Positions 3,050 through 17,989 of a stretch of DNA of 18,172 nt are shown here, piece by piece. The translations under genes were made by a program, and so were the position numbers. Positions within the stretch are counted from its first letter, which is position 1; each line of letters begins with the position of its first letter. The stretch lies in contig CAYSHM010000035.1 of the NCBI GenBank assembly GCA_964430885.1, positions 1 through 18,172 of the forward strand, given 5' to 3'. The notes under the pieces are model-generated. The model saw only the letters and a program-made list of their open reading frames with translations. It did not search any database and had not been told where the DNA came from. This DNA is from an uncultured archaeon. Lineage in GTDB: Archaea > Thermoplasmatota > Penumbrarchaeia > JASLWR01.

Positions 3050-3141
3050 TTCTGGTAATAATACCATACTCGGGATCATCATAATGGATGGTCTGTTTAC
3101 TGCAACTTATGTAATGAACAGAAGAGAATAATTGAATGGAC

Positions 3142-5826
3142 CTATTCCAGCCTGGAGGATTTCCCCTCCTTAATTTTCCATATGAACTTTCTCAAGATAT
3201 CTATGGGTATGATAACGAAAGAGAATCCAATTATGTATAACCATTCTTTGGGGTGAAGAGGCACGGTTCTAAGCACCTCTCCTCCAAAATAGGTGAATAT
3301 CACTTGGATGATGAAGATAAGAGTAATGATAATAATGAAATTCTTGTTATTGCCAAGATTATCAAAAAGATTCATACATTGAGTTCTGGCGTTGAAGGTA
3401 TTGAAATTGGCTATGAATACAAAGAAGGAGAAGAAAGCGGTAAGAAGGACCTCCTCATCGCCCCTGAACAATTCCTTTATCCAGGGGATCTTCAAAAATG
3501 CCAAACTGAGGACCGCCATTGAGATACCCTGAATAAGTATAGCTACCCACATCTCTCTGGTTATTATTGGAGCATCCTTGGGGATGGGTTCTTCATGCAT
3601 TGTCCTACTAGAAGGATATTCACCGGCAATAGCGATTCCCGCCAGGGTATCCATGATGAGATTTATCCAAAGGAGTTGGGTCATGGTAAGAGGTAGTTCG
3701 TAACCGAAGAAGGGGCCCAGCCAGGCAACAATGATTGCCGCCACATTTATGGATAACTGGAAAACCAGGAATTTTCGAATGGATTTGAACAATGTCCTTC
3801 CGAATAGAATCGCCTGGGTGATGGAAGAGAAGTTATCATCAAGTATTACAATATCGCTGGATTCTTTGGTCATTTCAGTACCGGAACCCATGGCAAAACC
3901 CACATCTGCGTTCTTAACCGCCGGAGCATCGTTTACCCCGTCACCAGTCATACCTACAACCCAATTGAGATCCTTGGCTGCCTTGATCAGACGGCTCTTA
4001 TCCGTGGGCAGGGCTCTTGCTATGACCTGCAGGTTAGGCAGGATTCCCTTCAATTCCTTATCTGACAATTCAGACAGTTCTGCCGATGTAATCACCTTTC
4101 CCACACCTTCATCCAGAAGCCCTACGTCTTTTGCAATGGCCTTGGCAGTTTCCTTGGAATCACCGGTCATCATCACTACCTTTATGCCTGCATCCCTTGC
4201 AAGTTCGATAGCAAGTGGAATCTTCTTTCTTATTTTATCCCTGAGGGCGAACAATCCCACCAGAGTCAATGATGAAGGGAGGGAATGATCCGCGGAGATG
4301 TCTTCTTCACTAAAAGCCACAACTAGAAACCTCATCTCCCTTTTGGATAGATTTACTATCTCTTTTTCAATATCTTCCATATGATCAAGCGGTTGTTTCT
4401 TGCCCTTTTCATCAAGATAGAAATTGCAGTATGGAAGCAGCATCTCCGGAGCACCCTTAACAAGTGTCAGATCGTGTTTACCCTTCACCTGCGCAGCGGA
4501 GAACTTCCTGGAACTGGAAAATGGAATGGTGTCCACCGTTTTTAGACCTTTATGAGCATCCTTTTTCCTATCGAAGCTTGGATACAGAAAATTTAGGATA
4601 GCTCTTTCAGTGGAGTTGGCCCCGAGAAAAGTCGGATTTTTCGGGTCGGAAAGATCGATTATAGCACTGGTATTAAACCTAACAGCATATAATAAAAGTG
4701 AAAGGAAAGGTTTGGGTATTTGGTTCAGTTCGGTATATTTTTTTAAACCTCCGGTAAAGAAATCATAGACTGAGAGAGAACCTTTTGTTATTGTTCCAGT
4801 TTTATCTGTAAAAAGGACTGTGAGGCTTCCTGTTGTCTCGATACCAAGCAATTTTCTTACCAGTACATTCTGCTTCAAGAGTTTCCTCATATTGAGGGAT
4901 AGAACTGCAGCTATCATCATGGGCAGTCCTTCTGGGACTGCAACGACAATAATGATTATTGCTAAAGTGATTGCCAATACTACATGACTTACTATCTCCT
5001 CCGCTTCCAATGCAGCATAAGCGGAAAGACTGCCGACGTCTATGAAAATATGGTATATCATTATAGAAATAGCAATAAGTATAGCGCCAACATACCCGAA
5101 GGTGCTGATCTGCTTTCCAAGGACCGACAGCTTTTTCTGAAGCGGGGATAAACGGTCTTCTGCGGACACAATCTCCTTGATGGTCTTGCCATACATGGTC
5201 TTGTCTCCAACGGCGGTTATCTCAATAACCCCCTTCCCATCAACAATCAAAGCAGAACGTGGAAGGGTGCTCTCTTCCTCATGGGCATGTACGGTATTCT
5301 CACCTTTTTTCTTTTTAGAAATATCCAGAGGATACTTCTTTACCGGACGTGATTCTCCGGTCAAAGGTGCCTGATTGAGTTCAAGCTGTCCTTCCAGTAG
5401 GGTTCCATCGGCGGGCACCATATCTCCAGGCTGTACCAGAACCTTATCCCCTACCACGAGGTCCCTGATCATCACCTTGATGAGATGACCCGATCTAAAG
5501 GTCTTAACAGTGATCGGAGAAGCATCTTCCAATAACTGCTGAAAAGTGGTCTCGTTCCGGTGTTCCGACCATGTTGCAACAAGAATAGCAATAACAACGG
5601 CAATAGCGATCCCGATACCTTCGTACCATGAAGCAAATCCGAGAACTGCCAGGATCATGGTTATTCCAAGGGCGACAATTAGAATGATAATTATAGGATC
5701 CTTGATATTGTTCCAGAGCTTATCAAAGAATGTTTCCCTCTCGAGGGTGGTCACTTCATTGGACCCGTTCTTGGTCCTGGATGCGGCCACCTGCTTTTCG
5801 GTCAAACCCTTGTATTCCATCATCAT
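3142..5826 (-). CDS. Calcium-translocating P-type ATPase, PMCA-like (type IIB-like), about 894 aa
   Basis: Motifs TGES, VAVPEGLP, DKTGT (phospho-Asp), KGAPE, MTGD, MTGDGVNDAP, FQLSINVAA and QLLWINLIMDT. Start moved from the ORF-track GTG at 5889 to ATG at 5826 because SD GGGTGA lies at 5840-5835. Confidence 0.9.
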   Translation of the reverse strand: MMMEYKGLTEKQVAASRTKNGSNEVTTLERETFFDKLWNNIKDPIIIILIVALGITMILAVLGFASWYEGIGIAIAVVIAILVATWSEHRNETTFQQLLEDASPITVKTFRSGHLIKVMIRDLVVGDKVLVQPGDMVPADGTLLEGQLELNQAPLTGESRPVKKYPLDISKKKKGENTVHAHEEESTLPRSALIVDGKGVIEITAVGDKTMYGKTIKEIVSAEDRLSPLQKKLSVLGKQISTFGYVGAILIAISIMIYHIFIDVGSLSAYAALEAEEIVSHVVLAITLAIIIIVVAVPEGLPMMIAAVLSLNMRKLLKQNVLVRKLLGIETTGSLTVLFTDKTGTITKGSLSVYDFFTGGLKKYTELNQIPKPFLSLLLYAVRFNTSAIIDLSDPKNPTFLGANSTERAILNFLYPSFDRKKDAHKGLKTVDTIPFSSSRKFSAAQVKGKHDLTLVKGAPEMLLPYCNFYLDEKGKKQPLDHMEDIEKEIVNLSKREMRFLVVAFSEEDISADHSLPSSLTLVGLFALRDKIRKKIPLAIELARDAGIKVVMMTGDSKETAKAIAKDVGLLDEGVGKVITSAELSELSDKELKGILPNLQVIARALPTDKSRLIKAAKDLNWVVGMTGDGVNDAPAVKNADVGFAMGSGTEMTKESSDIVILDDNFSSITQAILFGRTLFKSIRKFLVFQLSINVAAIIVAWLGPFFGYELPLTMTQLLWINLIMDTLAGIAIAGEYPSSRTMHEEPIPKDAPIITREMWVAILIQGISMAVLSLAFLKIPWIKELFRGDEEVLLTAFFSFFVFIANFNTFNARTQCMNLFDNLGNNKNFIIIITLIFIIQVIFTYFGGEVLRTVPLHPKEWLYIIGFSFVIIPIDILRKFIWKIKEGKSSRLE

Positions 5827-6219
5827 ATCTTTTTTCACCCTTCTTGGAATAAAAATCGTTCTAATAGATAGTCTGTAAGTATTCTGCACACTAGTATATG
5901 CTCTATCTTCCTCGTCATCAATATTCTCTCAATATTGGTATTTGGGGATCTGGATTATTCCTAATGAAATTATTATATCATGATTTTACGGCCCATTTGG
6001 GTAAATTAATCCTGCAAAGAGCATTTATCTATCACCGCAAATAATCCATGGAATAAATGGATAGTTCTGGGCCCCTAGATTTTGGTGGATTGAAATTCTA
6101 CAAGAATAATTTATTATATTTAACAGATTCCACTTATATTACACAGTAAATAATTAAATATTGGATTATTGAATCCATAATCTATCCATCAACTGAAATA
6201 TAATTCAGCGATTAGCCAT

Positions 6220-6256
6220 AAAAAAAAAGAAAAATTTGGGGATTTTCAACTCCCCA
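6220..6256 (-). terminator. Hairpin plus long U-tract terminator downstream of the carbamoyltransferase gene
   Basis: Minus strand reads TGGGGA-gttgaaaa-TCCCCA, then aa and TTTTTCTTTTTTTTT. It begins about 30 nt after the stop codon. Confidence 0.65.
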
Positions 6257-6287
6257 TAAACTTATGAATATCATATTTTGAAAAATA

Positions 6288-7241
6288 TTATTCCATTGCT
6301 CCCAAGACCAGGGCCAAGAGTGCCATTCTCATGACAACGCCGTTGAAAGCTTCAGTCCAGTAGCGGGAATGTCTCGTCTCGTCAACATCCGACGGAAGTT
6401 CGTCCATCCTCGGAAGCGAGTGAAGAATGATAACATCGCTCCTGGCTTTCTCCCGCAGAAGTTTTCGGGTAACCTTATAGTTCTCAGGGGTCAATCCCTT
6501 GTCCTCGGTTGCGTCCTGCCTTGCTTTCGTATAATCAGGCTGAACCACAGGTTCCATGTAGATCATATCCGCATCCCCGATAACCTTCTCCACATGATCG
6601 ACAAAGTCATATCGGGCATTCTTCTTATCCATGATATCGATATATTCCTGGGTCATTGACATTTCAGGGGGGAAAATAAAATTAGTTTCGATATCGAATT
6701 GGGTTATAGCATGGGCCATGGAGTGCATTGTCCTCATTCTGCCGTCGCCTACACAGAGAAAGTTCAATCCGTCAAGTGTGCCCAATTCCTTCCATACGGT
6801 ATATAGATCTGTGAGTACCTGAGTAGGATGCTCACCCCATCCGTCGCCGCAGTTGATGATGGGAACACTTGCCCATTTGGCAGCTTCCGCTGGTGTACCC
6901 TGCTGGAAATGTCTCATTGCTATTACATCCCCGTAATACTCCAGCATCTTCACCGTATCCTTGATGGATTCCTGATAAAAATCCCCTGCACGAGTCATCT
7001 TGGCATCAGAAAAACCTTCCACGGCCCCACCCAATCTATGCATTCCAGCTTCAGTTGCCAGTCTTGTTCTTGTGCTGGGCTGATAGAACGCTGTGACCAA
7101 TGTCTTTTCCTTCAATAGATCACAGTTCTGTCTATTTCTGGCATATGGAGCCAATTCATCTGCGATCTCAAATATTCTCATATAATCTTCTTTCTCGAAA
7201 TCCTTGAGGGACAATATGTCCTTTCCTAGAAAACTTCTCAT
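6288..7241 (-). CDS. Aspartate-carbamoyltransferase-like transcarbamylase (pseudo-ATCase; possibly ureidoglycine carbamoyltransferase-like), 317 aa
   Basis: Carbamoyl-phosphate motifs STRT, RH, HPTQ and HSLPR are present. The ATCase aspartate-binding RxQxER motif is replaced by EPVVQPDY, and the 80s-loop KGE by TRAGDFYQE. SD GAGGTG at 7254-7249. Confidence 0.85.
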   Translation of the reverse strand: MRSFLGKDILSLKDFEKEDYMRIFEIADELAPYARNRQNCDLLKEKTLVTAFYQPSTRTRLATEAGMHRLGGAVEGFSDAKMTRAGDFYQESIKDTVKMLEYYGDVIAMRHFQQGTPAEAAKWASVPIINCGDGWGEHPTQVLTDLYTVWKELGTLDGLNFLCVGDGRMRTMHSMAHAITQFDIETNFIFPPEMSMTQEYIDIMDKKNARYDFVDHVEKVIGDADMIYMEPVVQPDYTKARQDATEDKGLTPENYKVTRKLLREKARSDVIILHSLPRMDELPSDVDETRHSRYWTEAFNGVVMRMALLALVLGAME

Positions 7242-7545
7242 TCATCTACACCTCAAATCTTACATACTTATTCCGAATAATTCCGAACCATGATTATTGT
7301 TTCAGTATCTAATAATCGTGTTTCCATTCCTTTTAGAAACCGGTCTTGGGGATAGGCCCTCATGCTTTATTAACTTATTTTCAAAAGAAAATTAAAAGTA
7401 ATTTAAAAGGTACCGTAATTGAAAAAAATACCTATAAAGGAACAATATGCCTTTAAGAATAATCTGCGGAGCTCGACTGTGCTGCAGATAATGGAAAAAA
7501 CGGACCTGTGAACTAACATAAGAAATTGTCTATAAATTCACATCA

Positions 7546-9132
7546 TTAGGACCTCTGGAAAAAATCATCCAATATTTTACTGCCATCGCTTATCATACTT
7601 TCAGTTAATGAACCATACTTTCTCTCGATAACAGTCAGGTATTCCTCATATAGATCTATTTTCACAGGCAGAGCAAAGGGTAGTGAGATAGAGGTTATCA
7701 AGGCTTCCCCAGGCATCAGCATCTGAACTTCGGCTCCGAGACCGGACATATCCTGCTTGGCGGATTGTTTCAGCATATCACGATCACGTTTGTCACCCAA
7801 ACCGAGTATGAAGAGAGTGTTGAATTGGGAAAGTATCTCCTCGTCAATTAACTTCGGCTGCTGGGATATGGCGCAAAGACCGACCCTGAACTTCCTTCCT
7901 TCCCTGGCTATCTGGGTGTAGATATTCCTTCTTACACCCTGATTTCCGAACCCCTGTCTTCCCAGAACCCTCTGTGCTTCCTCCATAGTGATAAGTACGG
8001 GTAATAGATCTGTAAAGTTTTCTGTTCTGGTGTACTGCCGTTTGTGATATCTGAAAACTGACCGGGCTATGACTATGCTTATAAGCAGTTCCTCTGCCTC
8101 TCCCATGGAGGATGTATCCACAAGTACAGTCTTTCCCTCCTGAAGATAGGATATTATCTTTTTTGTTATGGTTATCTCTGGGTCTCTATGCAGAAGATTG
8201 TACGAGAAAAGGTTCTTCAGTTTTCTTCTTATCACTCCCAGGGTCGAATCATAAGTGCCTTCAAGATGAAAGCTCAATTCCTCCATGGGTTTGTCATGAA
8301 GATTCGTTACCCATTCATCACCATATAATCTTTTGGCCGATCTAAGAGCATCCCTCTGGGGACCCGTGAACTCATAAAGCTGTTCCAGGTCATCAACCTC
8401 GATCTCCTTGGAACTGACCTTGATCGGCTCATAAGTGCCGGAAAGCTTCCTAGCTGAAAAAACTCGGAGATTTTTCCTTGCGAGTGGATGATGAATCAAT
8501 CCCTTTCGATCTTGGCCACCTCCATCGAAATATTCCCCGTGTGGATCGAAAATCAATAATCCCGTTATCCCTTTCTCAATACATGATGCAGACAAACGTT
8601 TCATCAGATTGGATTTACCCATGCCTGTTGTGGCGAAAACCCCTACATGGGATGGCAGATCCTTAGAATGAACACCTACAGGAATATTTACCTCCCTCTC
8701 GCCGCTCCTGAGGAGCCCTACCTTGATATCCCCCATGAAATCCTCAAGAAGTTTCAGGTCGTTATCATCGGCTCTTCTAACCCCGCCGAAATGGGCGGGC
8801 ATGGTCTTCGGTTTCTTGAAAATACCGTTCTCCATATAACCCAGAGGCTTGCATACCCCCACCTTATAGAGTCTTCTTTCCCTATCGTGCAGTTCAAACT
8901 CCAATTTCCCCTGTTCGAAATTGATCATATTTCCTGCAGTCCTTGCCGCCCAATCCGGGTCTGCTGCCTCGAAGCCCATCCTGATATCGAATATTCTAAG
9001 CAGGAATTCCCTTCTGGTTGCGGGGTCCATTCCCATGAGTATTTCCCCGAGAAAAATATCCTGGCCGAAGGCTGCCCTGAATCGGATCTCCCTTACGTTC
9101 TCACCTATTATCCTGCCTATGTTCCTGATCAA
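7546..9132 (-). CDS. herA: HerA-family (DUF87/FtsK-HerA) ATPase/DNA translocase, 528 aa
   Basis: N-terminal HAS-barrel-like region, Walker A FATTGMGKSN, Walker B ITMEEAQR, arginine-finger region IAREGRKF, and ISQQP. TTG start with SD GGTGA at 9142-9138. Adjacent to nurA. Confidence 0.88.
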   Translation of the reverse strand: MIRNIGRIIGENVREIRFRAAFGQDIFLGEILMGMDPATRREFLLRIFDIRMGFEAADPDWAARTAGNMINFEQGKLEFELHDRERRLYKVGVCKPLGYMENGIFKKPKTMPAHFGGVRRADDNDLKLLEDFMGDIKVGLLRSGEREVNIPVGVHSKDLPSHVGVFATTGMGKSNLMKRLSASCIEKGITGLLIFDPHGEYFDGGGQDRKGLIHHPLARKNLRVFSARKLSGTYEPIKVSSKEIEVDDLEQLYEFTGPQRDALRSAKRLYGDEWVTNLHDKPMEELSFHLEGTYDSTLGVIRRKLKNLFSYNLLHRDPEITITKKIISYLQEGKTVLVDTSSMGEAEELLISIVIARSVFRYHKRQYTRTENFTDLLPVLITMEEAQRVLGRQGFGNQGVRRNIYTQIAREGRKFRVGLCAISQQPKLIDEEILSQFNTLFILGLGDKRDRDMLKQSAKQDMSGLGAEVQMLMPGEALITSISLPFALPVKIDLYEEYLTVIERKYGSLTESMISDGSKILDDFFQRS

Positions 9133-9230
9133 TTAAATCACCATTTTTTATTATCATCAAGCTGCATTTTCAAATTCATCATCATCATGATCGTCAGCAT
9201 TATTATGATCGTTATTTCCAAATAACATTT

Positions 9231-10241
9231 CTAAGTTCCCCTATCAAGAATATCATGAAAATCCTGGATAAGATAACGCCATTGACTGCCGGACATTCCA
9301 GTTTCCAGGGCTGTCCGTTCCAATTCATTGACCATATCTTCAGATTCAGCCTTGGTTATGGCAACCTCATTATGCACCTTGACAAGAGGATAAGGATAAC
9401 CCGGATATCCCGCGTCACGACAGTATCTTGAAAGCACGCCCAGATACTTCGAGGGATCATTCCCCGGGAACAAGTCCGCTCTGAATACGAACTGGGATAA
9501 TGGGTGAAGTTTTACTGCCGTAACCAAAGGTGGTCGGGATGAAATATTATTTCCTCTGAAAATATCCTGACCAAAGGTCACAGGTACATTCAGGTACCAT
9601 TTCTTTTTATGGACCATCCGATTTGACCAGTATTGAATATGGGGCAGCAATGGTATCCCTTTCAAGCTGAGAGAGGTGGATTTGGAGAGCCCTATTAGCT
9701 TAATATTTCTATCTTCAGCTATGCCGAGTATATCTGCCATTTTGTTCTCCAGATGAGGTATTCCAGGCATTAACGTACCGTCAACAAGCAGCATGGAGCC
9801 TGCGGGCAGGTCTGAAACCAAGCTCTCGATCATTTCAAGTTCCTTGGCTTCCCTTACCAAGGATAGTACCGTTTCCGGGTCCTTAACTTTATTGGTCAAC
9901 CGGGGAATTAGCTTGCAATGGGTGAGAAAATCCCGGTTCAGATCGGGTTTTCTGATAAATATGGGGGCCCCCGCCTCCTCCCTTCGGTCCACCTCATTTC
10001 CGTCATCAAAAATAATAGCTAGAACCCTCTGGAACCCTACAATGAAGTTCGGGGCTTTCAAAATTACCGATGAAGAACCATCAACAGCAGCTGTCAGATG
10101 AGGGCCCTTATGGGTTTTAAACACCTGAAAATCGTCTTCTGAAAGGGGAGGAAGCACATTCTGTGAATATACTGATAACAAGGTCTCTGCAATAGACCTT
10201 GACCAATCTCCAACACCCTTGGCAGTCTGCTCCTGGCTCAT
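9231..10241 (-). CDS. nurA: NurA-family nuclease, about 336 aa
   Basis: AAVDGSS, LLVDGTL, IGLSKST and C-terminal GYPYPLVKVHNEV are NurA motifs. Directly upstream of herA. ATG at 10241 preferred over TTG at 10253 because of the TATA-box spacing. Confidence 0.85.
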   Translation of the reverse strand: MSQEQTAKGVGDWSRSIAETLLSVYSQNVLPPLSEDDFQVFKTHKGPHLTAAVDGSSSVILKAPNFIVGFQRVLAIIFDDGNEVDRREEAGAPIFIRKPDLNRDFLTHCKLIPRLTNKVKDPETVLSLVREAKELEMIESLVSDLPAGSMLLVDGTLMPGIPHLENKMADILGIAEDRNIKLIGLSKSTSLSLKGIPLLPHIQYWSNRMVHKKKWYLNVPVTFGQDIFRGNNISSRPPLVTAVKLHPLSQFVFRADLFPGNDPSKYLGVLSRYCRDAGYPGYPYPLVKVHNEVAITKAESEDMVNELERTALETGMSGSQWRYLIQDFHDILDRGT

Positions 10242-10265
10242 TGAAGAAAGCAAAAAGCATGTTGT

Positions 10266-10273
10266 TATTTAAA
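10266..10273 (-). promoter_or_regulatory. Putative archaeal TATA box (TTTAAATA) for a leaderless nurA-herA transcript
   Basis: Lies about 25 nt upstream of ATG 10241, which has no SD motif. The spacing fits archaeal leaderless transcripts. Confidence 0.45.
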
Positions 10274-10426
10274 TGTTGTTCTGAGGTGAAGAAAAGTAAG
10301 AGTGAATCTGTTCGCTATGTTGCCTAATGATCTTTCGTTTTCCCCTAAACTGCAATATGAAAGTTGCATCTATAGCACTCTTTGCTTTTTCATTTAAAAG
10401 AATAAAACAGAGTTCATCCGACATAA

Positions 10427-10464
10427 TTTTAAAAATGATATTGTCGTTTAGGTGGCCCGGGTGA
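10427..10464 (+). promoter_or_regulatory. Putative TATA box (TTTTAAAAA, 10427-10435) and SD (GGGTGA, 10459-10464) of the redox operon
   Basis: TATA spacing places a transcription start just before the SD, which is 5 nt upstream of ATG 10470. Confidence 0.45.
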
Positions 10465-10469
10465 TGAAT

Positions 10470-12440
10470 ATGTCGGTCCGAGGCAATGAAGAACAGGAGG
10501 ATGCTGAGGAGTTCAAGCGCCAAGAGCGTATCTTTGATCTCTGCGGCTGCACCACCTGTCCCGGAAAGGACAATTGTCAGTTGAAGGATGTGATAACTTA
10601 TCTTGATATGGACCTGTCCGCTTTCCGGATCAGCGAAAGGGAGATCCCACTTGAGAACGGTGACCCATTCTTTGACAGGGATTATGACCTCTGTATATTA
10701 TGCGGACGCTGTGTAAGGGTTTGTCATGACATCAGGGGCAATGGAGCAATATCTCTTATCAACCGAGGGTCTAAGGCAAGGGTAGGGACAGCCTTTGGGG
10801 AGGGGCATCTAGAGGGGCCCTGCATGTTCTGCGGAGCCTGTGTGGACGTATGCCCTACCGGAGCTCTGAGCATTAAGGAAAGACGATATTATGGTCAGGC
10901 GGATAGAACGGTGAAATCGACATGCAGCCTGTGCGGGCTGGGCTGTTCTATGGATCTAATGGTGAAATGGAAAAGGGTTGTAGATGCAGAACCAAATATT
11001 GAAGGATGGAATAAAGGGCAGGGCTGCGTACTGGGAAGATTCTGCCTCCCTCAAATGGATCGGATTGCTCCTAGGCTGAAAACTCCATTGATAAGAAAGG
11101 AAGGAGTGTTAGTCCCTGTGGGATGGGATGAAGCGATAGAGGAAACATGTTCCAGACTTGCCGAGTTCAATCCCGGGGACATAGGATTCATATTCTCCAG
11201 GGACCTGACCAATGAAAGTTCAGAGCTCCTTGGCCGGATATCCATCAAAGGATTCCCCGGTTCAAGCAGGTATTTGGATTCGCCCCTTGCTGAATTGATG
11301 CAGAGATATTATTTCAAAATACCGACCAATTCGGTTAGCGCTCAATTTCAGTTTGCCGACAAAACTCAAAAAGACGGCATGATCCTTATAGTAGGCGGGA
11401 GACCGGACCTGACCCACGGACAGCTGATGGCGGATCTGAAAAGGGCCAAGAACAATGGTACTGCAATAGTATATGTCGGATTGCATCCCTATGTCAATAC
11501 CGGCAAGGAAACCATCAATATTGACAGCCGCCAATACTCCGTTGTATTGCTGTCAATTCTAAATAACATGATAAAGGTAAAAGTGGAGGGCGAGGATTTT
11601 GACCTTGATTCAGATGTTGACAGCCAGGGCGAACTGAACAGACTCAGTAGCTTTCTTGACGGTCATTTAAATGGCTCGGATACTGGATCATTTGATGAAA
11701 TCAGCACCATATTGGAGAAGTGTGCGGATAATATCACCATTTTCATGGGAGTGGATATTCTAAACGAAGAAAAAGAAGGGGATCCTGCATTAACAATAAC
11801 TGCTGCTATGGATATTCTTGAACTTTCAGGCAATTCCGGCAGCCTATTGTTCCTATTAGAGGGGAATTCAAGGGGAGTTATTGAAAATATTGTTCTTCAG
11901 GATGCAGATGATTTCGGATCTGGCGATGTGGCTGGAAAAAAGGTAATCTTCACAACTGCCATGGATGCCGAGATCCCTGACTCCGCTGAACTTGTAATAC
12001 TGCAGAATCCGTTTGAAGGAAAATTGACCGATATGTCCGATATCATTCTACCAGCGGCATCCCTTACTGAAACCCATGGAACCATGACTACCCTATACGG
12101 AAAAAAAGCGGTAATCAATGAAGCAGGTCAAGCTCCGGGTACGGCAATGCAGGACAAATGGATATTTGATAGGATAATTGCCAAACTAGGTATTGAGTTG
12201 GAACTGCACAGCGGTGAAAAGGTAGATAATGATCAGCAGAATATTGAGGAGACGGGGAAAGAAAGGGGATCATTCAAAAGCCTTGTTCTCCAGAAACTGG
12301 CAGAATATCCTGATCATAAATTTGATGTAAGAATCGTAAGAAGCGAGCCCTTCACTTTTAGAGGAATTAAGATCCAGAACATTCTTCAGGACCTTGAGGT
12401 TTTTCTTAACCACCGTATGAATCCAAAGGGGGGTGATTGA
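10470..12440 (+). CDS. NuoG/FdhA-like iron-sulfur subunit lacking the N-terminal [2Fe-2S] domain, with a degenerate molybdopterin domain (about 656 aa)
   Basis: Begins with CGCTTCPGKDNCQL, then 2x[4Fe-4S] motifs CILCGRCVRVC and CMFCGACVDVCP, then the Mo-domain cluster motif TCSLCGLGC...GC, plus RLKTPLIR, WDEA and DIILPAA...E. No catalytic Cys/Sec-His motif is visible. Start at ATG 10470 based on the SD. Confidence 0.85.
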   Translation: MSVRGNEEQEDAEEFKRQERIFDLCGCTTCPGKDNCQLKDVITYLDMDLSAFRISEREIPLENGDPFFDRDYDLCILCGRCVRVCHDIRGNGAISLINRGSKARVGTAFGEGHLEGPCMFCGACVDVCPTGALSIKERRYYGQADRTVKSTCSLCGLGCSMDLMVKWKRVVDAEPNIEGWNKGQGCVLGRFCLPQMDRIAPRLKTPLIRKEGVLVPVGWDEAIEETCSRLAEFNPGDIGFIFSRDLTNESSELLGRISIKGFPGSSRYLDSPLAELMQRYYFKIPTNSVSAQFQFADKTQKDGMILIVGGRPDLTHGQLMADLKRAKNNGTAIVYVGLHPYVNTGKETINIDSRQYSVVLLSILNNMIKVKVEGEDFDLDSDVDSQGELNRLSSFLDGHLNGSDTGSFDEISTILEKCADNITIFMGVDILNEEKEGDPALTITAAMDILELSGNSGSLLFLLEGNSRGVIENIVLQDADDFGSGDVAGKKVIFTTAMDAEIPDSAELVILQNPFEGKLTDMSDIILPAASLTETHGTMTTLYGKKAVINEAGQAPGTAMQDKWIFDRIIAKLGIELELHSGEKVDNDQQNIEETGKERGSFKSLVLQKLAEYPDHKFDVRIVRSEPFTFRGIKIQNILQDLEVFLNHRMNPKGGD

Positions 12441-12441
12441 A

Positions 12442-12945
12442 TTGACCGAAGGAAGATCTGAACATATGAACAAATGTGAAGATGAAAGGATCGTGGTAGA
12501 AAATATACTTCGCAGCAGGGAAGGGTCCAGAAAGAACCTAATCCCGCTTCTACAGGATATCCAGGAAGCTTTGGGATACATATCCCCTGAAGCAGTAAGA
12601 ATTATCGCGGAAACTACCGGTATGACTGCCAGCTACATATTCGGCGTGGCTACCTTCTATGCCCAATTCAGATTTCAACGACCCGGTAAATACCAGATAA
12701 GGATATGTGAAGGTACTGCCTGCCATGTCAGAGGTACCCAGGAGATCATATCCGAGGTCAAGAGACGGCTGAACATAGAGAAAGGTGAGACCACAAAGGA
12801 CGGCCTTTTCAGTCTGGAGACCGTCGCCTGTATGGGCTGCTGCGCTTTGGCTCCTGTGATGATGGTAAACGAGGATGTATACGGAGAATGCACACCTGAA
12901 AAGGCTGGCCGGATCATTGAGGATTACTCCATGGAGGCGATCTGA
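12442..12945 (+). CDS. nuoE: NuoE/HydC-like [2Fe-2S] thioredoxin-fold subunit
   Basis: LIPLLQDIQEALGYI, GVATFYAQF, CEGTACH...CMGCCALAP. TTG at 12442 follows SD GGGGGTGA. ATG at 12466 is an alternative start. Confidence 0.92.
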   Translation: MTEGRSEHMNKCEDERIVVENILRSREGSRKNLIPLLQDIQEALGYISPEAVRIIAETTGMTASYIFGVATFYAQFRFQRPGKYQIRICEGTACHVRGTQEIISEVKRRLNIEKGETTKDGLFSLETVACMGCCALAPVMMVNEDVYGECTPEKAGRIIEDYSMEAI

Positions 12946-12946
12946 G

Positions 12947-14866
12947 ATGACATTGGAAGAACTAAGGTCTGAAGCAGAGATCAAGATAAGGGAACTTACG
13001 AAGTGCGGAAAACCTGTGATTTATTTCGGCGCTGCATCATGCGGAAGGGCCGCAGGCGTCCTAGAAACCATATCTGCAGCGAGGGAGGCACTTGACGAAG
13101 TAAATGCGGAAGCGGAGCTCGTGGAGGTAGGCTGTATTGGAATGTGCTGTTACGAGCCCTTGGTCTATCTATCTGTAACTGGAAGCCAACCCCTTTGCTT
13201 CGGTAATGTGACACCTTCTAGGATGAAAAAAATCATCTCCAGCTTCATTGTGAACAATAATTCCCTGGATGATATGGATAACAAGACATATCCATTGGGG
13301 GTATTGGACCTGGACGGATATGAGAATGTGGTAGGTATTCCGCCTTTAACCCAACATCCAATGCTGAAACCCCAGGTGAGATTGGTCCTCAGAAACTGCG
13401 GAAAAATCGACCCCACGGATATCAAGGATTATGTATCAAATGACGGGTACAGGGCTCTGGAGAAAATATTGAAAATGGAACCTGAAGAAGTTATCGATGA
13501 GATAAAAAGATCAGGTTTGGGGGGAAGAGGTGGAGCCGGGTTCCCTACCGGTCTTAAATGGGAGTTATGCAGGAATAACCAAAGTGATTTCAGATACCTT
13601 ATATGCAATGCCGACGAGGGCGATCCTGGAGCTTTCATGAACAGGTCCCTTCTCGAGAGTGATCCGCATGCGGTGCTTGAGGGCATGCTCATTGCGGGAT
13701 ATGCAATTGGGTGCCGGGAAGGCTATATTTATATAAGAGCTGAATATCCACTGGCGATAAAACGGCTGAACACTGCCATAGAACAGATGAAGAAGCACAA
13801 TCTATTGGGTCAGAACATCCTTGACAACGGATTCTCTTTTGACATAAACATAAAGAAAGGTGCTGGGGCTTTTGTGTGCGGTGAGGAAACAGCCCTGATG
13901 GCCTCTATTGAAGGAAAAAGAGGCATGCCCAGGCCGAGACCGCCCTTTCCAGCCCAATCCGGACTATGGGGGGAACCCACCAATATAAACAACGTCGGAA
14001 CACTGGGAAGCGTTGCAAATATCATAAGGATGGGTGGCGTTGAATTTGCCCGGTTCGGTTCTGAAACCGCTAAGGGAACCAAGACATTTTCCCTTGTAGG
14101 CAAGATAGAAAGAACTGGTCTTATCGAGGTCCCGCTGGGAACCTCTCTGGGCGAGATCATTTTCGACATCGGCGGCGGAATCAAGGGCGGAAAGAAATTC
14201 AAAGCAGTTCAGACCGGGGGCCCTTCCGGAGGCTGTATTCCCGCTTCGAAGATAGATATTTCCGTTGACTATAAATCCCTAAGCGAAGTGGGCTCAATAA
14301 TGGGTTCCGGGGGCATAGTGGTAATGGATGAAGATACATGTATGGTGGATATCGCTAAGTTCTTCCTCACCTTCACCCAGGATGAATCATGCGGAAAATG
14401 CCCCCCATGCCGTATCGGAACCAAGAGAATGCTGGAAATACTTATAAGGATAACTGAAGGAAGAGGACGTCCTGAAGATATAGATCAGCTGATCAAGCTC
14501 TGCGATACCATAGGAAAAGCATCCCTCTGCGGTCTAGGGCAGACTGCACCAAATCCAGTATTGACCACTCTGACCTATTTCAGGGACGAATATGAAGCAC
14601 ACATCTATACTAAAAGATGTCCTGCAAAGGTCTGCAAGGAACTCTATGAATTCCACATTGATCCTGAGACCTGCATAGGCTGCGGACAATGCTCGAAGGC
14701 CTGCCCCGTGAATGCCATAACAGGAGAAAGAAAAGAAGTTCACATAATCGATAAAGATGAATGCATAAAGTGCGGTGTATGCTTTGCAGTGTGTCCGAAA
14801 AAGGTAAGGGCTGTAAAGAAGATCGATAGATATCCAAAGACTGATGAAGAAGGTGATCTGGAATGA
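12947..14866 (+). CDS. nuoF: NuoF/HydB-like FMN- and NAD(H)-binding subunit, long form with N-terminal thioredoxin-like domain and C-terminal 2x[4Fe-4S] domain (about 639 aa)
   Basis: GRGGAGFPTG, CNADEGDPGAFM, FVCGEETAL, GGPSGG, ESCGKCPPCR...LC, and C-terminal CIGCGQCSKACP and CIKCGVCFAVCP. ATG at 12947 with SD GGAGG at 12933-12937. Confidence 0.93.
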   Translation: MTLEELRSEAEIKIRELTKCGKPVIYFGAASCGRAAGVLETISAAREALDEVNAEAELVEVGCIGMCCYEPLVYLSVTGSQPLCFGNVTPSRMKKIISSFIVNNNSLDDMDNKTYPLGVLDLDGYENVVGIPPLTQHPMLKPQVRLVLRNCGKIDPTDIKDYVSNDGYRALEKILKMEPEEVIDEIKRSGLGGRGGAGFPTGLKWELCRNNQSDFRYLICNADEGDPGAFMNRSLLESDPHAVLEGMLIAGYAIGCREGYIYIRAEYPLAIKRLNTAIEQMKKHNLLGQNILDNGFSFDINIKKGAGAFVCGEETALMASIEGKRGMPRPRPPFPAQSGLWGEPTNINNVGTLGSVANIIRMGGVEFARFGSETAKGTKTFSLVGKIERTGLIEVPLGTSLGEIIFDIGGGIKGGKKFKAVQTGGPSGGCIPASKIDISVDYKSLSEVGSIMGSGGIVVMDEDTCMVDIAKFFLTFTQDESCGKCPPCRIGTKRMLEILIRITEGRGRPEDIDQLIKLCDTIGKASLCGLGQTAPNPVLTTLTYFRDEYEAHIYTKRCPAKVCKELYEFHIDPETCIGCGQCSKACPVNAITGERKEVHIIDKDECIKCGVCFAVCPKKVRAVKKIDRYPKTDEEGDLE

Positions 14867-15609
14867 TAACCATTAATGGTACAGAATATGAGTTCATCGA
14901 AGGCTTCACTGTTATGGAAGCCGCCGAGCAGGCTGGGCATTACATTCCAAAACTCTGCTCTCATCCATTACTGCCTCCCTTCGGAGCATGCAGGTTGTGC
15001 CTGGTCAAGATCCAAGGGATGAGAGGATATCCGACTTCATGCACTACACCTCTCAGGGACGGCATGGTGATCACCACAGAGGACCATGAGCTCAGATCTC
15101 TGAGGCGAAGCATAATGGAGCTCATTCTATCCGAACACCCCAATCGATGTTTCGGATGCGCCGCCTGTGTTTTGGATTGTGTGGTATGCGCATATCTGGA
15201 TACTGATGAGGAGGTCAGACCCAGATCCATAATGGAAAGGCTGGACATGAACGAGAACCCCCTGGATGGAAAGGAAATTTGGTGCTGTGCCGCCTGCCAT
15301 AAATGCGCAGACGGATGTCCTCACGGATCAAATCCTCAACAGACCTGCTCACTGCTCAAGGAGAGGGCGCTGAAGGAGGGAAAAGTTCCAAAAGGGATAA
15401 TGGCAATGTCAAAAAACATTATAGAAAGCGGTTATTCAGTCCCAATAAATCCCAATGTTGACCGCCAAAGAGAGAGAAGCGGATTGCCTGCATTAAATCG
15501 GCCGAATTCCCGGGAACTCATGAGCATCTTGAAGAGAGCTGGTTCCGCGGAACTTTTCGGATTTGAAAAAGATAAGGACGGAGAAGAAGAAGAGGTGGTG
15601 GCAGAATGA
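14863..15609 (+). CDS. Fusion protein: NuoG/HydA N-terminal [2Fe-2S] domain plus heterodisulfide reductase subunit C (HdrC)-like domain, 248 aa
   Basis: Residues 1-93 carry IPKLC32...GAC43RLC46LV...TSC60TTP...RRSIMELILSEH92P. Residues 96-248 carry C96xxC99xxC102xxxC106, RPRSIM, EIWCC142xxC145xxC148xxxC152P and an HdrC-like tail RERSGLP. ATGA overlaps with both neighbouring genes. Confidence 0.85.
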   Translation: MITINGTEYEFIEGFTVMEAAEQAGHYIPKLCSHPLLPPFGACRLCLVKIQGMRGYPTSCTTPLRDGMVITTEDHELRSLRRSIMELILSEHPNRCFGCAACVLDCVVCAYLDTDEEVRPRSIMERLDMNENPLDGKEIWCCAACHKCADGCPHGSNPQQTCSLLKERALKEGKVPKGIMAMSKNIIESGYSVPINPNVDRQRERSGLPALNRPNSRELMSILKRAGSAELFGFEKDKDGEEEEVVAE

Positions 15610-16502
15610 AAAGCTTTGCCTATTTTCCAGGCTGCGTTATTCCCGTGAACTATCCTCATATAGAGAAGATCACCCTGGACATGCTGAAAAGATTCAATAT
15701 CGAACTCCTTCACCTAGAAGGTTTCTCCTGCTGTCCGGAACCTATAGAGTTCGCCTCTCTTCACCCCCTTACCACACTGGGTTTCTCTGCAAGGAACCTC
15801 GCCATCGCCCAGGAAACCGGATTGGACATATTAACAGCATGCAACGGATGCACCTTGAGCCTGAAGGATGCTGCTGATAAGCTGGAAAAGGACCCCGAGT
15901 TACTCGGGAAGGTAAATGAAGTTCTCCAGGATACTCCTTTCAGGTACAACGGCGGTGTAAAGGTATATCATTTTTTAGAGGTTTTCAAAGATATTATAGG
16001 AAGAGATAAACTAGCTGCTTCAGTAACCAGGCCGCTGACAGGAGTCCGAATCGCCACGCATACCGGATGCCATCTGCTGTCCCCTCCTGAATTGATAGGA
16101 TTCGAAGCAGATCCCGGAACACCTGTGGAGTTTGACCAGTTGATAGAGGCAATAGGCGGGATACCGGTGGATTACGCGACCAAAACCCTCTGCTGCGGAA
16201 TTTCTCACAGTCTAGGTGGAACACCAAAATCCAGCTTCCTAATGGTAAAGGACAAGATTGTTGACGTTGACAGCAACCGAGTTGACTGCATGGCTGTCGG
16301 CTGTCCTTCATGCCTTTCTCAGCTGGATAAGGGACAGCACATAGTTGCCCGCAAATTCAAACTGGACATATCCATACCCGTGCTCTACTTCACCCAGCTA
16401 TTAGGTCTGGCCCTTGGTTTGGACCTCAAAGAGGTAGGCTACATGAAGAACAGGGTAAAGAACAAGGAGTTCCAGCAGAAAATTGAAGGCTTGGGTAATT
16501 GA
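15606..16502 (+). CDS. hdrB: Heterodisulfide reductase subunit B (two CCG domains), 298 aa
   Basis: C10-x31-C42C43-x35-C79xxC82 and C155-x40-C196C197-x35-C233xxC236. Also YFPGC, ARNLAIA, HTGCH, QLDKGQ and IPVLYFTQLLGLALG. Confidence 0.93.
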   Translation: MKSFAYFPGCVIPVNYPHIEKITLDMLKRFNIELLHLEGFSCCPEPIEFASLHPLTTLGFSARNLAIAQETGLDILTACNGCTLSLKDAADKLEKDPELLGKVNEVLQDTPFRYNGGVKVYHFLEVFKDIIGRDKLAASVTRPLTGVRIATHTGCHLLSPPELIGFEADPGTPVEFDQLIEAIGGIPVDYATKTLCCGISHSLGGTPKSSFLMVKDKIVDVDSNRVDCMAVGCPSCLSQLDKGQHIVARKFKLDISIPVLYFTQLLGLALGLDLKEVGYMKNRVKNKEFQQKIEGLGN

Positions 16503-16540
16503 AATGTTGCATTCAGTATTGAATTATTTTCATATATTAT

Positions 16541-17989
16541 CTACTGGCTATCTTTGATTGCTTCATCTATTAGTTTTTCACCCTGAGAAAGCAGAAAATC
16601 AGCTCTTTTCCTGCTCATGGCATCGGAATATACCCGGAACAAAGGCTCGGTCCCGGACGGTCTGACCAATAACCAAGAATTATCATTATATATTCTCTTG
16701 AGTCCGTCAATGGTTATGTCCATCTTTTTATCCTTTGCAAGGTTCACATCCTCGTTGAACCTTTTCACAACTGAAGCATAGACTGAATCCTTGGATTGGT
16801 CCGAGCATCTTCTCTGGCCTTTGGCCTGATAGAAATCAGGGAAATCGTCCGCCAATTCAGCCAAAGTCATCTTCCTTTCAGCCATTATCTGCAGCAGGAA
16901 AAGAGTGGCAAGATTGCCGTCGCACCAGTGAACATCCTTGGCAAAATAATATTTTCCGCTCTCCTCATAGGCATATACTGCCTTATCCCCGTGTTCCATG
17001 AGTGCCCGCTCAGTATCAGGCTGGCCAATCCTACAGTATGCCATCTTCACCTCGTATTTCTCTGCGAGATAATCTATTAGACCTGAAGAGTTCACCGGGG
17101 TTATGCATACCGGATCGTCTACTTTCTCATCGGCGCATTTCTCAAAGATCCATTTTCCGAAAATGGCGCCTACTACATCCTCTGACACTACTTTGCCTTC
17201 TTCATCAATGAAAACGACCCTGTCAGCATCAACGTCAGTTGCAGCAGCAAGTTTAGCATTATGCTTCCGAAGGGCATTTATCGTAGAGTCCAGAGTGGTC
17301 GCCCTGGGCTCGGCAGAGCGGTCAGGGTTCCCTTTTCGGATATTATTTATAGCTGCAACCTTGATACCGCATCTCTTGACCATGGCAGGAAGAATATCCA
17401 CAGCAGTTCCGTTTCCCGGATCCAGTACTATCCTGAAATTCTTTTCAAGGGTTAATTCTGCAATAAATTCCCGATCGATAAGGGATAGTGCATGCTCCAT
17501 ATATCTCTCCATCCTCCCGGTCACAACCTTTCGTATACCAATATCATTCATGACCGAACGATCATCGGGGGACCCACATTCTGATTGACTGAAGTACAAT
17601 TCCTCAACTTCCAGAGCTTTTTTATCACTGATATAGCATGCATTGGAATCCATATAGATGAGGCCGATCCTATTTGGCGGCATATGGGAGCCAGTCACCA
17701 TAACTCCTCCCTTTCCGCCGAGCTCGATGATCGACAGAGCCAGGGCAGGAGTGGGCATTATTCCACAATCCAGAACATCCAGACCTGCAGAATTGAGACC
17801 TGCGGTGATCGCCTGGGTAAGCATCTGAGCACCGAACCGGGTATCCCTGGCCATTACAACCATTCCCTTTCCGCCCAACCATTTTCCGAAGGCATAGGAT
17901 AGTTCCATTGCCAGCATGGGAGTAATTTCAGTATTCGTTTCACCTCTTACACCTGATGTTCCGAACAATTTTGGTTTCTTCTCTGACAT
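16541..17989 (-). CDS. Alpha-D-phosphohexomutase family protein (phosphomannomutase/phosphoglucosamine mutase-like), 482 aa
   Basis: LFGTSGVRG, RDTR, PTP, phospho-Ser motif TGSHMP, metal loop DVDADR, YEESG and RPSGTEP. SD GGTGA at 17998-17994. Confidence 0.9.
   Translation of the reverse strand: MSEKKPKLFGTSGVRGETNTEITPMLAMELSYAFGKWLGGKGMVVMARDTRFGAQMLTQAITAGLNSAGLDVLDCGIMPTPALALSIIELGGKGGVMVTGSHMPPNRIGLIYMDSNACYISDKKALEVEELYFSQSECGSPDDRSVMNDIGIRKVVTGRMERYMEHALSLIDREFIAELTLEKNFRIVLDPGNGTAVDILPAMVKRCGIKVAAINNIRKGNPDRSAEPRATTLDSTINALRKHNAKLAAATDVDADRVVFIDEEGKVVSEDVVGAIFGKWIFEKCADEKVDDPVCITPVNSSGLIDYLAEKYEVKMAYCRIGQPDTERALMEHGDKAVYAYEESGKYYFAKDVHWCDGNLATLFLLQIMAERKMTLAELADDFPDFYQAKGQRRCSDQSKDSVYASVVKRFNEDVNLAKDKKMDITIDGLKRIYNDNSWLLVRPSGTEPLFRVYSDAMSRKRADFLLSQGEKLIDEAIKDSQ

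Follow-up and report, generated by a model that had tools for sequence, protein, structure and literature searches.

HdrB and HdrC (HdrBC) are known as the high-potential outlet of HdrA-based electron bifurcation, and Bfu/HydABC cores are known to take hydrogenase, formate dehydrogenase, Nfn, Wor or Bam modules. This report concerns a five-gene operon in which parts of both kinds of enzyme occur together. The operon lies on an 18,172-nucleotide stretch of DNA (hereafter the window), which is a whole contig (C35) of the 3.13-Mb metagenome-assembled genome, 91.6% complete, of an uncultured archaeon of the class Penumbrarchaeia. Its fourth gene encodes a protein, P0001, in which the N-terminal [2Fe-2S] domain of the BfuA/NuoG family (called A1 here) is joined to an HdrC domain.

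The closest described system on the input side is the Bfu family, including HydABC, NiFe-HydABCSL and NfnABC/StnABC. In the available part of the source (Schut et al., 2022; PMC9304861), these enzymes have the same BfuB domains and the BfuC subunit, A1 follows bfuB, and the output module is exchangeable, as in the window. The window differs in that BfuA is split, with A1 placed on HdrC and the remainder encoded upstream, and in that the output is HdrBC, a type that is not named in that part of the source. On the output side, the HdrABC(-MvhAGD) complexes (5odc, 7bkb and 8rvu) share with the window a two-motif HdrC with its arm and, after it, an HdrB in which both CCG motifs are complete. In the window, however, A1 and a helix take the place of the first ~32 residues of HdrC, and HdrA and MvhD were found neither in the operon nor, with the proteins of relatives as queries, in the genome.

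Relatives of the same class carry two kinds of cluster, referred to here as T1 and T2. T1 operons are of the Nfn type, and consist of bfuC-bfuB-bfuA followed by genes for PyrK/NfnA-like and GltD/NfnB-like proteins. They contain the BfuB (54% identity), BfuC and A1 nearest to those of the window, in the same C-B-A1 order. In T1, BfuA is intact (~783 residues), its H-x3-C-x2-C-x5-C motif is canonical and the Nfn-like genes come next, whereas in the window hdrC-hdrB stand in their place. T2 clusters have the order hdrC-hdrB-(hdrA)-[hdrA_N::nuoE]-bfuB-[bfuA_N::hdrA, ~1080 residues]-mvhD-frhB-like. They combine a Bfu-type input with an HdrBC-type output, as does the window, and in both A1 is fused to an Hdr subunit, namely HdrA in T2 and HdrC in the window. 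The same combination of input and output in one complex is found in BCRII/Bam (BamGHI, BamF, BamE and BamD). According to the available part of a preprint (bioRxiv 10.64898/2026.04.10.717634), a HydBC-like module of BCRII feeds an HdrA-type module, whose high-potential branch leads to an HdrBC-like subunit acting on ETF instead of a heterodisulfide. In T2 and BCRII, an MvhD adaptor and a bifurcating flavoprotein of the HdrA type carry the electrons, whereas in the window they would pass from A1 straight to HdrC. SdhB/FrdB and TfrB, together with SdhE/HdrB-like CCG proteins, show the same order of [2Fe-2S] domain, helical dicluster domain and two CCG motifs. In the window, however, the N-terminal domain is a Fer2_4 domain of the NuoG/BfuA kind, and the flavoprotein partner is NuoF/BfuB-like, not SdhA-like.

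What, then, is new in this locus? Its parts belong to known families, and the new features are 1) a split BfuA, 2) the fusion of A1 with HdrC, and 3) HdrBC on a Bfu core without HdrA.

P0001 is an in-frame chimera of two families

P0001 was confirmed to be an in-frame two-family chimera, with an A1 domain joined to an HdrC domain. An earlier note on this DNA had described the N-terminal half as a NuoG/HydA-type [2Fe-2S] domain, and this description is borne out by profile and structure searches; the open reading frame, residue numbers and motifs given there also proved correct on recounting the translation. The four A1 ligands are C32, C43, C46 and C60, after which a helix ends in LILSEH92P. 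The Pfam domain Fer2_4 was found on residues 2-74 (E 2.4e-19; 69.6 bits against a cut-off of 22.8), residues 2-99 correspond to positions 1-98 of the NCBIfam NuoG profile, and residues 1-106 match the N-termini of solved FdhA, HydA and NuoG chains in the PDB (e.g., 6tg9_A at 3.7e-27). Identity of A1 was measured to be 49-55% to the first ~100 BfuA residues of eight relatives by alignment, and 51-59% to bfuC-bfuB-bfuA relatives by tblastn. A1 was located directly 3′ of bfuB in all of the eight bfuC-bfuB-bfuA loci examined in relatives, as it is in the window. The fold, the four cysteine ligands and the position directly after the NuoF/BfuB gene are therefore those of a NuoG/Fer2_4 A1 domain. 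The His-ligated cluster motif of this family is begun but not finished, as had been claimed: on residues 81-102, NADH-G_4Fe-4S_3 is matched over positions 1-22 of 40 (20.5 bits, under the cut-off of 27), and D105 stands where the third cysteine at x5 would be. No Fer4_Nqo3 match was found in P0001 with Pfam. The protein thus does not have the complete H-x3-C-x2-C-x5-C motif and the Nqo3-type pair of [4Fe-4S] clusters in one chain that characterize BfuA.

The C-terminal half contains two HdrC motifs, C96-x2-C99-x2-C102-x3-C106, with an additional C109, and C142-x2-C145-x2-C148-x3-C152-P. The HdrC profile TIGR03290 (NCBIfam) covers residues 95-212 with an E value of 1.6e-15, and the Pfam families of helical dicluster domains Fer4_8 and Fer4_17 cover residues 94-155, Fer4_17 at 22.6 bits against a cut-off of 22.2. 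With the full-length query, residues 95-239 match HdrC among solved structures. When residues 94-248 were searched alone, as the earlier note had proposed for residues 96-248, HdrC chains were the only matches (5/5 distinct PDB sequences at E ≤ 0.01); the best of these, 5odc_C, is matched over residues 33-180 of 184 at E 7.9e-12. This alignment spans 145 residues and includes the non-cluster C-terminal arm. Two CX2CX2CX3C(P) motifs, the helical domain, the C-terminal arm and an adjacent hdrB were thus all found, as in HdrC. As claimed, the C-terminal half groups with HdrC in both the PDB search and Foldseek, and not with NuoG's own ferredoxin domain. By its profile scores it can be called HdrC-like, but it does not qualify as a certified subunit of the enzyme acting on coenzyme B and coenzyme M (CoB-CoM). 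Chance resemblance is not credible, because the likeness of each half to its family extends well past the cysteine motifs.

The protein was modelled with AlphaFold on its own 24-row joint alignment of both families. The model has a mean predicted local distance difference test score (pLDDT) of 73.5 and a predicted template-modelling score (pTM) of 0.43, and both domains are confident. The A1 domain, at a pLDDT of ~90, superposes on 7t2r_A with a root-mean-square deviation of 1.9 Å over 88 columns. In Foldseek, the top seven matches of the model were HdrC chains, followed by the N-terminal domains of FdhA, HydA and NuoG, and no solved chain spanning both halves was found with the model as query. 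A complex of BfuB residues 172-585, HdrB and P0001 was predicted with a score of 0.78, and a control in which BfuB was replaced gave 0.79, indicating that the score comes from the pair with HdrB.

The junction had been claimed to lie at about 15136-15160, on a CxxC common to both families, and both parts of this claim stood. H92 to C99 of P0001 correspond to 15136-15159 of the window. Local alignments to BfuA-like proteins (intact proteins of four relatives) stop at P0001 residues 100-106, and HdrC alignments begin at residues 91-96 in 5/6 proteins, the exception being G009, which begins at residue 48 by way of a weak extension. The switch of family is therefore located on the CxxC formed by C96 and C99. 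Similarity to BfuA/NuoG and similarity to HdrC overlap only at about residues 94-101, which contain this shared CxxC, and C96 and C99 alone stand out in the joint alignment as nearly invariant across both families. The canonical BfuA motif of relatives is H-x3-C-x2-C-x5-C, followed by an insert of ~30 residues with a second C-x2-C-x5-C (7/7 sequences); P0001 retains H92, C96 and C99, and thereafter reads as HdrC. Residues 103-118 of the relatives' BfuA are absent from both P0001 and P0002, the BfuA-like protein encoded by the first gene of the operon. The earlier note had suggested an origin by recombination or deletion at the shared motif, an event for which close parent sequences do not exist. 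One deletion does not explain the origin of P0001, because the BfuA remainder is now upstream of nuoE and BfuA 103-118 are in neither piece.

The DNA across the junction was observed independently of the assembled contig. The stretch is present in four runs of one marine-metagenome study, and Logan per-run contigs of the runs X1 (28,088 nucleotides) and X2 (35,011 nucleotides), possibly the source samples of the assembly, cover 10000-16700 with 0 differences. In X3, a third sample of low depth, a 179-nucleotide contig covers 15015-15193, again with 0 differences, and two more contigs cover the start of P0002. The support across 15100-15200 that the earlier note had called for was thus obtained, with per-run contigs from three samples spanning the junction, all from one study. 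No joint or loose end was found at the junction among the per-run contigs; loose ends at 13599-14183 are due to the conserved nuoF of other organisms. The guanine-cytosine content is even across the operon (0.42-0.52), and no compositional break is seen at the junction.

A search for the two-domain architecture, also suggested in the earlier note, showed that it is not a common annotated family, and no second copy was found. Among proteins of near length, a word-index search gave 18 matches from 368 candidates, all of them NuoG/FdhA-type N-termini, with a query coverage of at most 63% and no second A1-HdrC fusion; the same search gave 0 matches among 31 candidates with the C-terminal half alone, and one match, to the N-terminal domain only, with residues 60-215. 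HMMER, run exhaustively over 1.84 billion representatives, returned 10,756 matches at E ≤ 0.001. Among the best 150 of these, the top score was 159 bits, compared with 573 bits for P0001 against itself, and no best stretch extended past residue 156, so no second fusion was present. The proteins aligned to residues 2-153 are ordinary NuoG/HoxU/FdhA-type proteins, with a complete NADH-G_4Fe-4S_3 in all of the 10 scanned. Searches with exact eight-residue patterns, which reach close relatives only, gave one unrelated N-terminal match and no fusion in JGI metagenome contigs, and 0 matches in GTDB genome contigs. No fusion was found in 40 related genomes, where the three HdrC matches of longest coverage were ordinary HdrC (two read, one by BLAST), and none among 80 of at least 600 Bfu loci from bacteria and archaea, of which one has a divergent hdrCB nearby. 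Two loci with long high-scoring alignments, L051 and L071, proved to encode ordinary FdhA- and HydA-type BfuA. Each of these searches is limited, and together they are no proof of absence. In the literature searched, available in part and exclusive of supplementary tables, no description of an A1-HdrC fusion or of a Bfu-HdrBC enzyme without HdrA was found.

The operon and the rest of the genome

Five genes on the plus strand form one coupled unit (10452-16502) in the order bfuA′-bfuC-bfuB-fusion-hdrB. Starts and stops overlap by 8, 4 and 4 nucleotides at three of the four boundaries (P0002/nuoE, bfuB/fusion and fusion/hdrB, respectively), and in the last two the overlap is an ATGA in which the start of the fusion or of hdrB meets the stop of the gene before it.

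Features of the fusion protein, its operon and the T2 clusters of relatives
Feature	Position	Strand	Remarks
P0001, fusion open reading frame	14863..15609	+	ATG start, 248 residues
P0001 residues 1-92, BfuA/NuoG-type [2Fe-2S] (A1) domain and linking helix to H92	14863..15138	+	Fer2_4
P0001 H92 to C106, junction	15136..15180	+	His-motif start H-x3-C-x2-C coincides with HdrC C96/C99
P0001 residues 96-248, HdrC-type di-[4Fe-4S] helical domain, C-terminal arm and acidic tail	15148..15609	+	
bfuA′ (P0002), NuoG/BfuA-like, N-terminally truncated	10452..12440	+	662 residues; NuoG profile, Fer4_Nqo3
bfuC/nuoE-like thioredoxin-like [2Fe-2S] subunit	12433..12945	+	170 residues; 2Fe-2S_thioredx E 6.6e-53
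bfuB/nuoF-hydB-like FMN subunit, longest open reading frame	12875..14866	+	Complex1_51K, NADH_4Fe-4S, two Fer4
hdrB-like subunit	15606..16502	+	298 residues; two Pfam CCG, E 1.7e-25, 89.3 bits
T2 clusters, six loci in relatives	L024:992-11161 (G003); L026, L027, L028, L034, L037		

BfuB has a [2Fe-2S] domain at its N-terminus and a 2x[4Fe-4S] domain at its C-terminus. Its residues 50-641 match solved bifurcating BfuB/HydB/NfnB chains (9bov_B at 8.5e-232, 9n5u_B, 7t2r_B and 8a6t_B), and all cysteine columns invariant in 15 BfuB sequences are kept (C87, C91, C582, C587, C600-C610 and C630-C640). BfuC exceeds the cut-off of the NCBIfam NuoE family NF005722 (156.7 against 141 bits). The extra BfuB clusters, which are absent from non-bifurcating NuoF, and the [2Fe-2S] cluster of BfuC are thus both represented, and the NADH module is assigned from these domains and ligands to the electron-bifurcating Bfu/HydABC type. 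The longest bfuB frame overlaps nuoE by 71 nucleotides, and M25 lies at 12947, two bases past the nuoE stop. Since alignments to relatives and solved structures begin near residues 25-50 and M25 just follows the nuoE stop, M25 is probably the true start.

HdrB has two complete CCG motifs, C10...C42C43...C79xxC82 and C155...C196C197G...C233xxC236, with all 10 cysteines, and keeps every cysteine column that is invariant or nearly invariant in 20 HdrB sequences, as expected of an HdrB.

P0002 is a BfuA without its first ~118 residues; neither the [2Fe-2S] domain of the N-terminus nor a canonical His-cluster motif is present. Its residues 33-569 correspond to positions 95-600 of 606 of the NCBIfam NuoG profile, and from residue 30 it aligns to 119-770 of the intact BfuA of relatives at ~30% identity. 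The Pfam domains Fer4_Nqo3, Molybdop_Fe4S4 and Molybdopterin, the last weak and degenerate, were found in it, and Molydop_binding was not. Its motifs comprise C31-x-C33-x2-C36-x5-C42, two CX2CX2CX3C(P) and Molybdop_Fe4S4. P0002 begins shortly before the second C-x2-C-x5-C of relatives (BfuA ~118-130), which falls on its residues 30-43 (window 10539-10580). C31, two residues upstream of this motif, is Thr in 7/7 relatives and may be a replacement ligand gained after the split.

Within the 91.6%-complete genome, the window HdrB is the only CCG protein found, and P0001 is the only protein found with an HdrC or with a Fer2_4-type A1 domain. The HdrA core and MvhD were searched for by tblastn with proteins of relatives (two canonical HdrA, one BfuA_N::HdrA and two MvhD); neither was found in the genome or operon, where the matches were generic ferredoxin-domain and GltD-like proteins only. 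An HdrA, usually with MvhD, feeding HdrC as in the HdrABC type was thus not found. A PyrK/NfnA-like and GltD/NfnB-like pair was observed at C25:28906-31174, away from the Bfu genes, with 42% and 60% identity to the partners that follow bfuA in relatives.

Proposed function and alternatives

How might such an operon function? The reading that we favor, as probable though far from assured, is that a Bfu-type NADH module is wired through the fused [2Fe-2S]-HdrC chain to an HdrB disulfide reductase, bypassing HdrA. NADH would be oxidized at the FMN of BfuB, and ferredoxin would probably exchange electrons at the extra BfuB clusters. From the BfuB [4Fe-4S] cluster beside FMN, electrons would reach the [2Fe-2S] cluster of A1, then, within the P0001 polypeptide, the two HdrC clusters, and finally the two non-cubane clusters of HdrB, where some disulfide would be reduced. 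HdrA, the usual flavoprotein feeder of HdrBC, would have no part in this route. We infer the docking of A1 on NuoF/BfuB and of HdrC on HdrB from the way the operon is built and from solved complexes of homologous proteins. The electron path is proposed on the basis of homology to solved Bfu and HdrABC complexes, the operon structure and the presence of all expected cluster ligands (in A1, both HdrC motifs, both CCG motifs, BfuB and BfuC); the substrate, the direction and any bifurcation or confurcation are putative. Relocation of A1 has precedent in relatives, which fuse it to HdrA (six loci) and to GltD (G001).

If a Bfu core and HdrBC were directly and covalently linked, the Bfu family would gain a new output module, and HdrBC would be shown to accept electrons without HdrA. 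Such a link would also be a natural example of the re-plugging of multi-cluster electron wires by fusion at a shared cluster-binding motif. In this archaeal class, A1 occurs fused to a molybdopterin-like domain, GltD, HdrA and HdrC, which marks it as a portable docking plug of the NADH module; such a plug would be useful for reading the redox metabolism of uncultured archaea and for engineering electron-transfer chains. A bolder proposal, which we put forward tentatively and regard as doubtful, is a direct coupling between HdrBC and the non-canonical FMN/iron-sulfur site at which BfuBC bifurcates, with no HdrA-type bifurcating FAD. If this were true, NADH oxidation would drive ferredoxin and disulfide reduction together, or the reverse, providing an HdrA-independent route to heterodisulfide-linked energy coupling in which one CxxC is reused as the seam between cluster-binding motifs.

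Several points weigh against the favored reading. P0001 scores below the HdrC equivalog cut-offs (57.3 against 160 bits for TIGR03290; 35.1 against 350 for NF041779), as does HdrB below that of TIGR03288 (257.8 against 345.15 bits). The organism is not shown to make coenzyme M (CoM) or coenzyme B (CoB). Because HdrC and HdrB are below these cut-offs and the HdrB branch is long (1.17), the substrate of HdrB may not be a heterodisulfide at all, and the acceptor is made uncertain by the HdrBC-like subunit of BCRII, which serves ETF. The energetics are awkward for a Bfu scheme: NADH could by itself suffice to reduce a disulfide of about -140 mV. In the available part of PMC9304861, third substrates of Bfu enzymes are of intermediate potential (H2, formate and NADPH), with one proposed case of very high potential, Rub-Bfu. 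In the P0001 model, residues 95-115 have a pLDDT < 50 and the pTM is low, such that the arrangement of A1 relative to the HdrC clusters is not fixed. Complex I structures show that, in NuoG-type proteins, the His cluster follows A1 in sequence and is not its neighbor in space; sequence adjacency is therefore no guarantee that A1 and HdrC are close enough for electron transfer. The scheme assigns no role to P0002, which at ~30% identity is far more diverged than the other subunits (44-59%). Finally, the fusion is known from one genome in one study, and conservation cannot show selection on it.

A branched complex is the alternative that survives best, although we consider it unlikely. Here P0002 would sit beside A1 and still serve the Nfn-like PyrK/GltD proteins, and A1 would be the branch point from which electrons go to HdrBC and to an NADP-linked module. 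Such an enzyme would be an Nfn-Bfu transhydrogenase with an extra disulfide outlet, not a dedicated disulfide reductase. P0002 is intact in the operon, overlaps nuoE by 8 nucleotides and keeps all cysteines of three or four clusters, its C31 may stand in for a ligand lost in the split, and the Nfn-like pair is retained in the genome. However, that pair is on another contig and gone from the operon, and the identity of P0002 to relatives, ~30% compared with 52-54% for BfuB, fits a relaxed or changed constraint. In addition, the HdrC domain and the P0002 N-terminus would both lie at the end of one helix and may clash.

Less probable still is that the operon is evolutionary debris, in which an Nfn-Bfu operon was rearranged, the fusion arose by accident with neutral or slightly harmful effect, and the gene products do not work together as one complex. 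The arrangement is unique in the searches made, P0002 and HdrB are strongly diverged, and the Nfn-like partner genes are out of the operon, all of which would suit such an origin. On the other hand, the five reading frames are all open with coupled starts and stops, the cluster ligands are complete in A1, HdrC, HdrB, BfuB and BfuC, and no other HdrBC was found in the genome. Although the genes differ from their closest relatives by 40-70%, they remain intact; this speaks for purifying selection on them over a long time, whatever the age of the fusion itself.

It is highly improbable that P0001 is not a chimera, but either a NuoG/HoxU-type protein with a diverged C-terminal half made up of the His cluster and a bacterial-type 2x[4Fe-4S] ferredoxin or an SdhB/FrdB/TfrB-type subunit pairing with an SdhE/HdrB-like CCG protein. 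With respect to the former, many NuoG/HydA/HoxU-type proteins align to residues 2-153, the cysteine spacing being equal; HoxU and NuoG profile matches, however, end at residues 99-104, and the complete NADH-G_4Fe-4S_3 of the scanned proteins of this kind is lacking in P0001. With respect to the latter, the cofactor order is that of TfrB, and NF004898 (TfrB) is collinear with P0001 94-194 (profile 134-241, E 4.4e-4) and HdrB 4-245 (profile 264-468); SdhE NF042965 also matches HdrB at E 4.8e-45. ESM Atlas clusters of ~250 residues with 2Fe-2S and Fer4_17 (score 0.85) are leads, not evidence. Against these stand the exclusive match of the C-terminal half to HdrC, arm included, the absence of SdhB/FrdB among the 50 Foldseek matches listed, the N-terminal half, which is not of the SdhB type, and the SdhB profile, which reaches only residues 94-172 at E 0.0076. 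P0001 does not have the features of SdhB/FrdB/TfrB, and no SdhA-like gene is present in the window. As far as sequence homology goes, this reading is largely refuted, and the likeness to SdhB/TfrB appears to be an architectural analogy only.

An assembly or binning artefact, in which the 5′ end of a bfuA would have been joined to an hdrC from another locus or organism, and for which the metagenomic source, the short contig spanning the entire window and a shared CxxC-coding stretch that could in principle mislead an assembler might speak, is largely refuted by the identical per-run contigs across the junction, the even composition and the in-frame join with coupled neighbor genes, leaving it a negligible chance.

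Relatives, history and flanking genes

The wiring favored above can be set beside the clusters of relatives. In the BfuB tree, a T2 Hdr-linked clade (100/100) excludes the window, whose BfuB is nearest to T1. A1 is 51-59% identical to T1 compared with 37-44% to T2, and the corresponding values for NuoE are 40-48% and 36-42%. In the HdrB tree, the window is placed on a long branch, weakly (83/90) beside stand-alone hdrCB pairs. The simplest history would be that an Nfn-type Bfu operon was remodelled and hdrC-hdrB replaced the Nfn genes. In this history, A1 would have joined HdrC and the BfuA remainder would have stayed upstream, the steps and their order being suggested by the comparison of present-day clusters.

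A variant of T1 with a BfuA_N::GltD fusion was found in G001, of the same family as the window organism. The bfuA_N::hdrA product of T2 comprises the BfuA [2Fe-2S] domain, Fer4 and HdrA, and T2 as a whole joins a Bfu-type NADH/ferredoxin module to a complete set of HdrABC and MvhD, a layout close to that of the bacterial Bam/BCRII. Stand-alone hdrC-hdrB pairs with HdrA not nearby were observed at L033:5549-6445, L041:5644-6360 and L032:5615-6208; their HdrC have long Pro/Thr/Ala-rich N-terminal extensions of low complexity, if the longest reading frames are real.

At L044:5073-10578 (G026), nuoE and a nuoF of the short type (432 residues) are followed by genes for a 622-residue hybrid, a 230-residue Fer2_4 protein and a NiFe large subunit. 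The 622-residue protein combines Oxidored_q6 (NiFe small subunit) and Fer4 with the C-terminal domain of the [FeFe]-hydrogenase large subunit (E 1.5e-22). Similar hybrid hydrogenases have been described from archaea.

The genes flanking the operon are unrelated to it. Together with N-terminal matches of about 50% to an Asgard (Gerdarchaeota) record, the HerA, NurA and archaeal-type GlmM genes among them point to an archaeon with Asgard relatives. Those at 503-10253 encode an 848-residue protein with weak cadherin-like, Ig-like and pectate-lyase-like matches and, on the minus strand, a P-type cation ATPase, an ornithine/aspartate carbamoyltransferase, and HerA and NurA. Downstream of the operon, an archaeal GlmM-type phosphoglucosamine mutase is encoded on the minus strand at 16541-17989.

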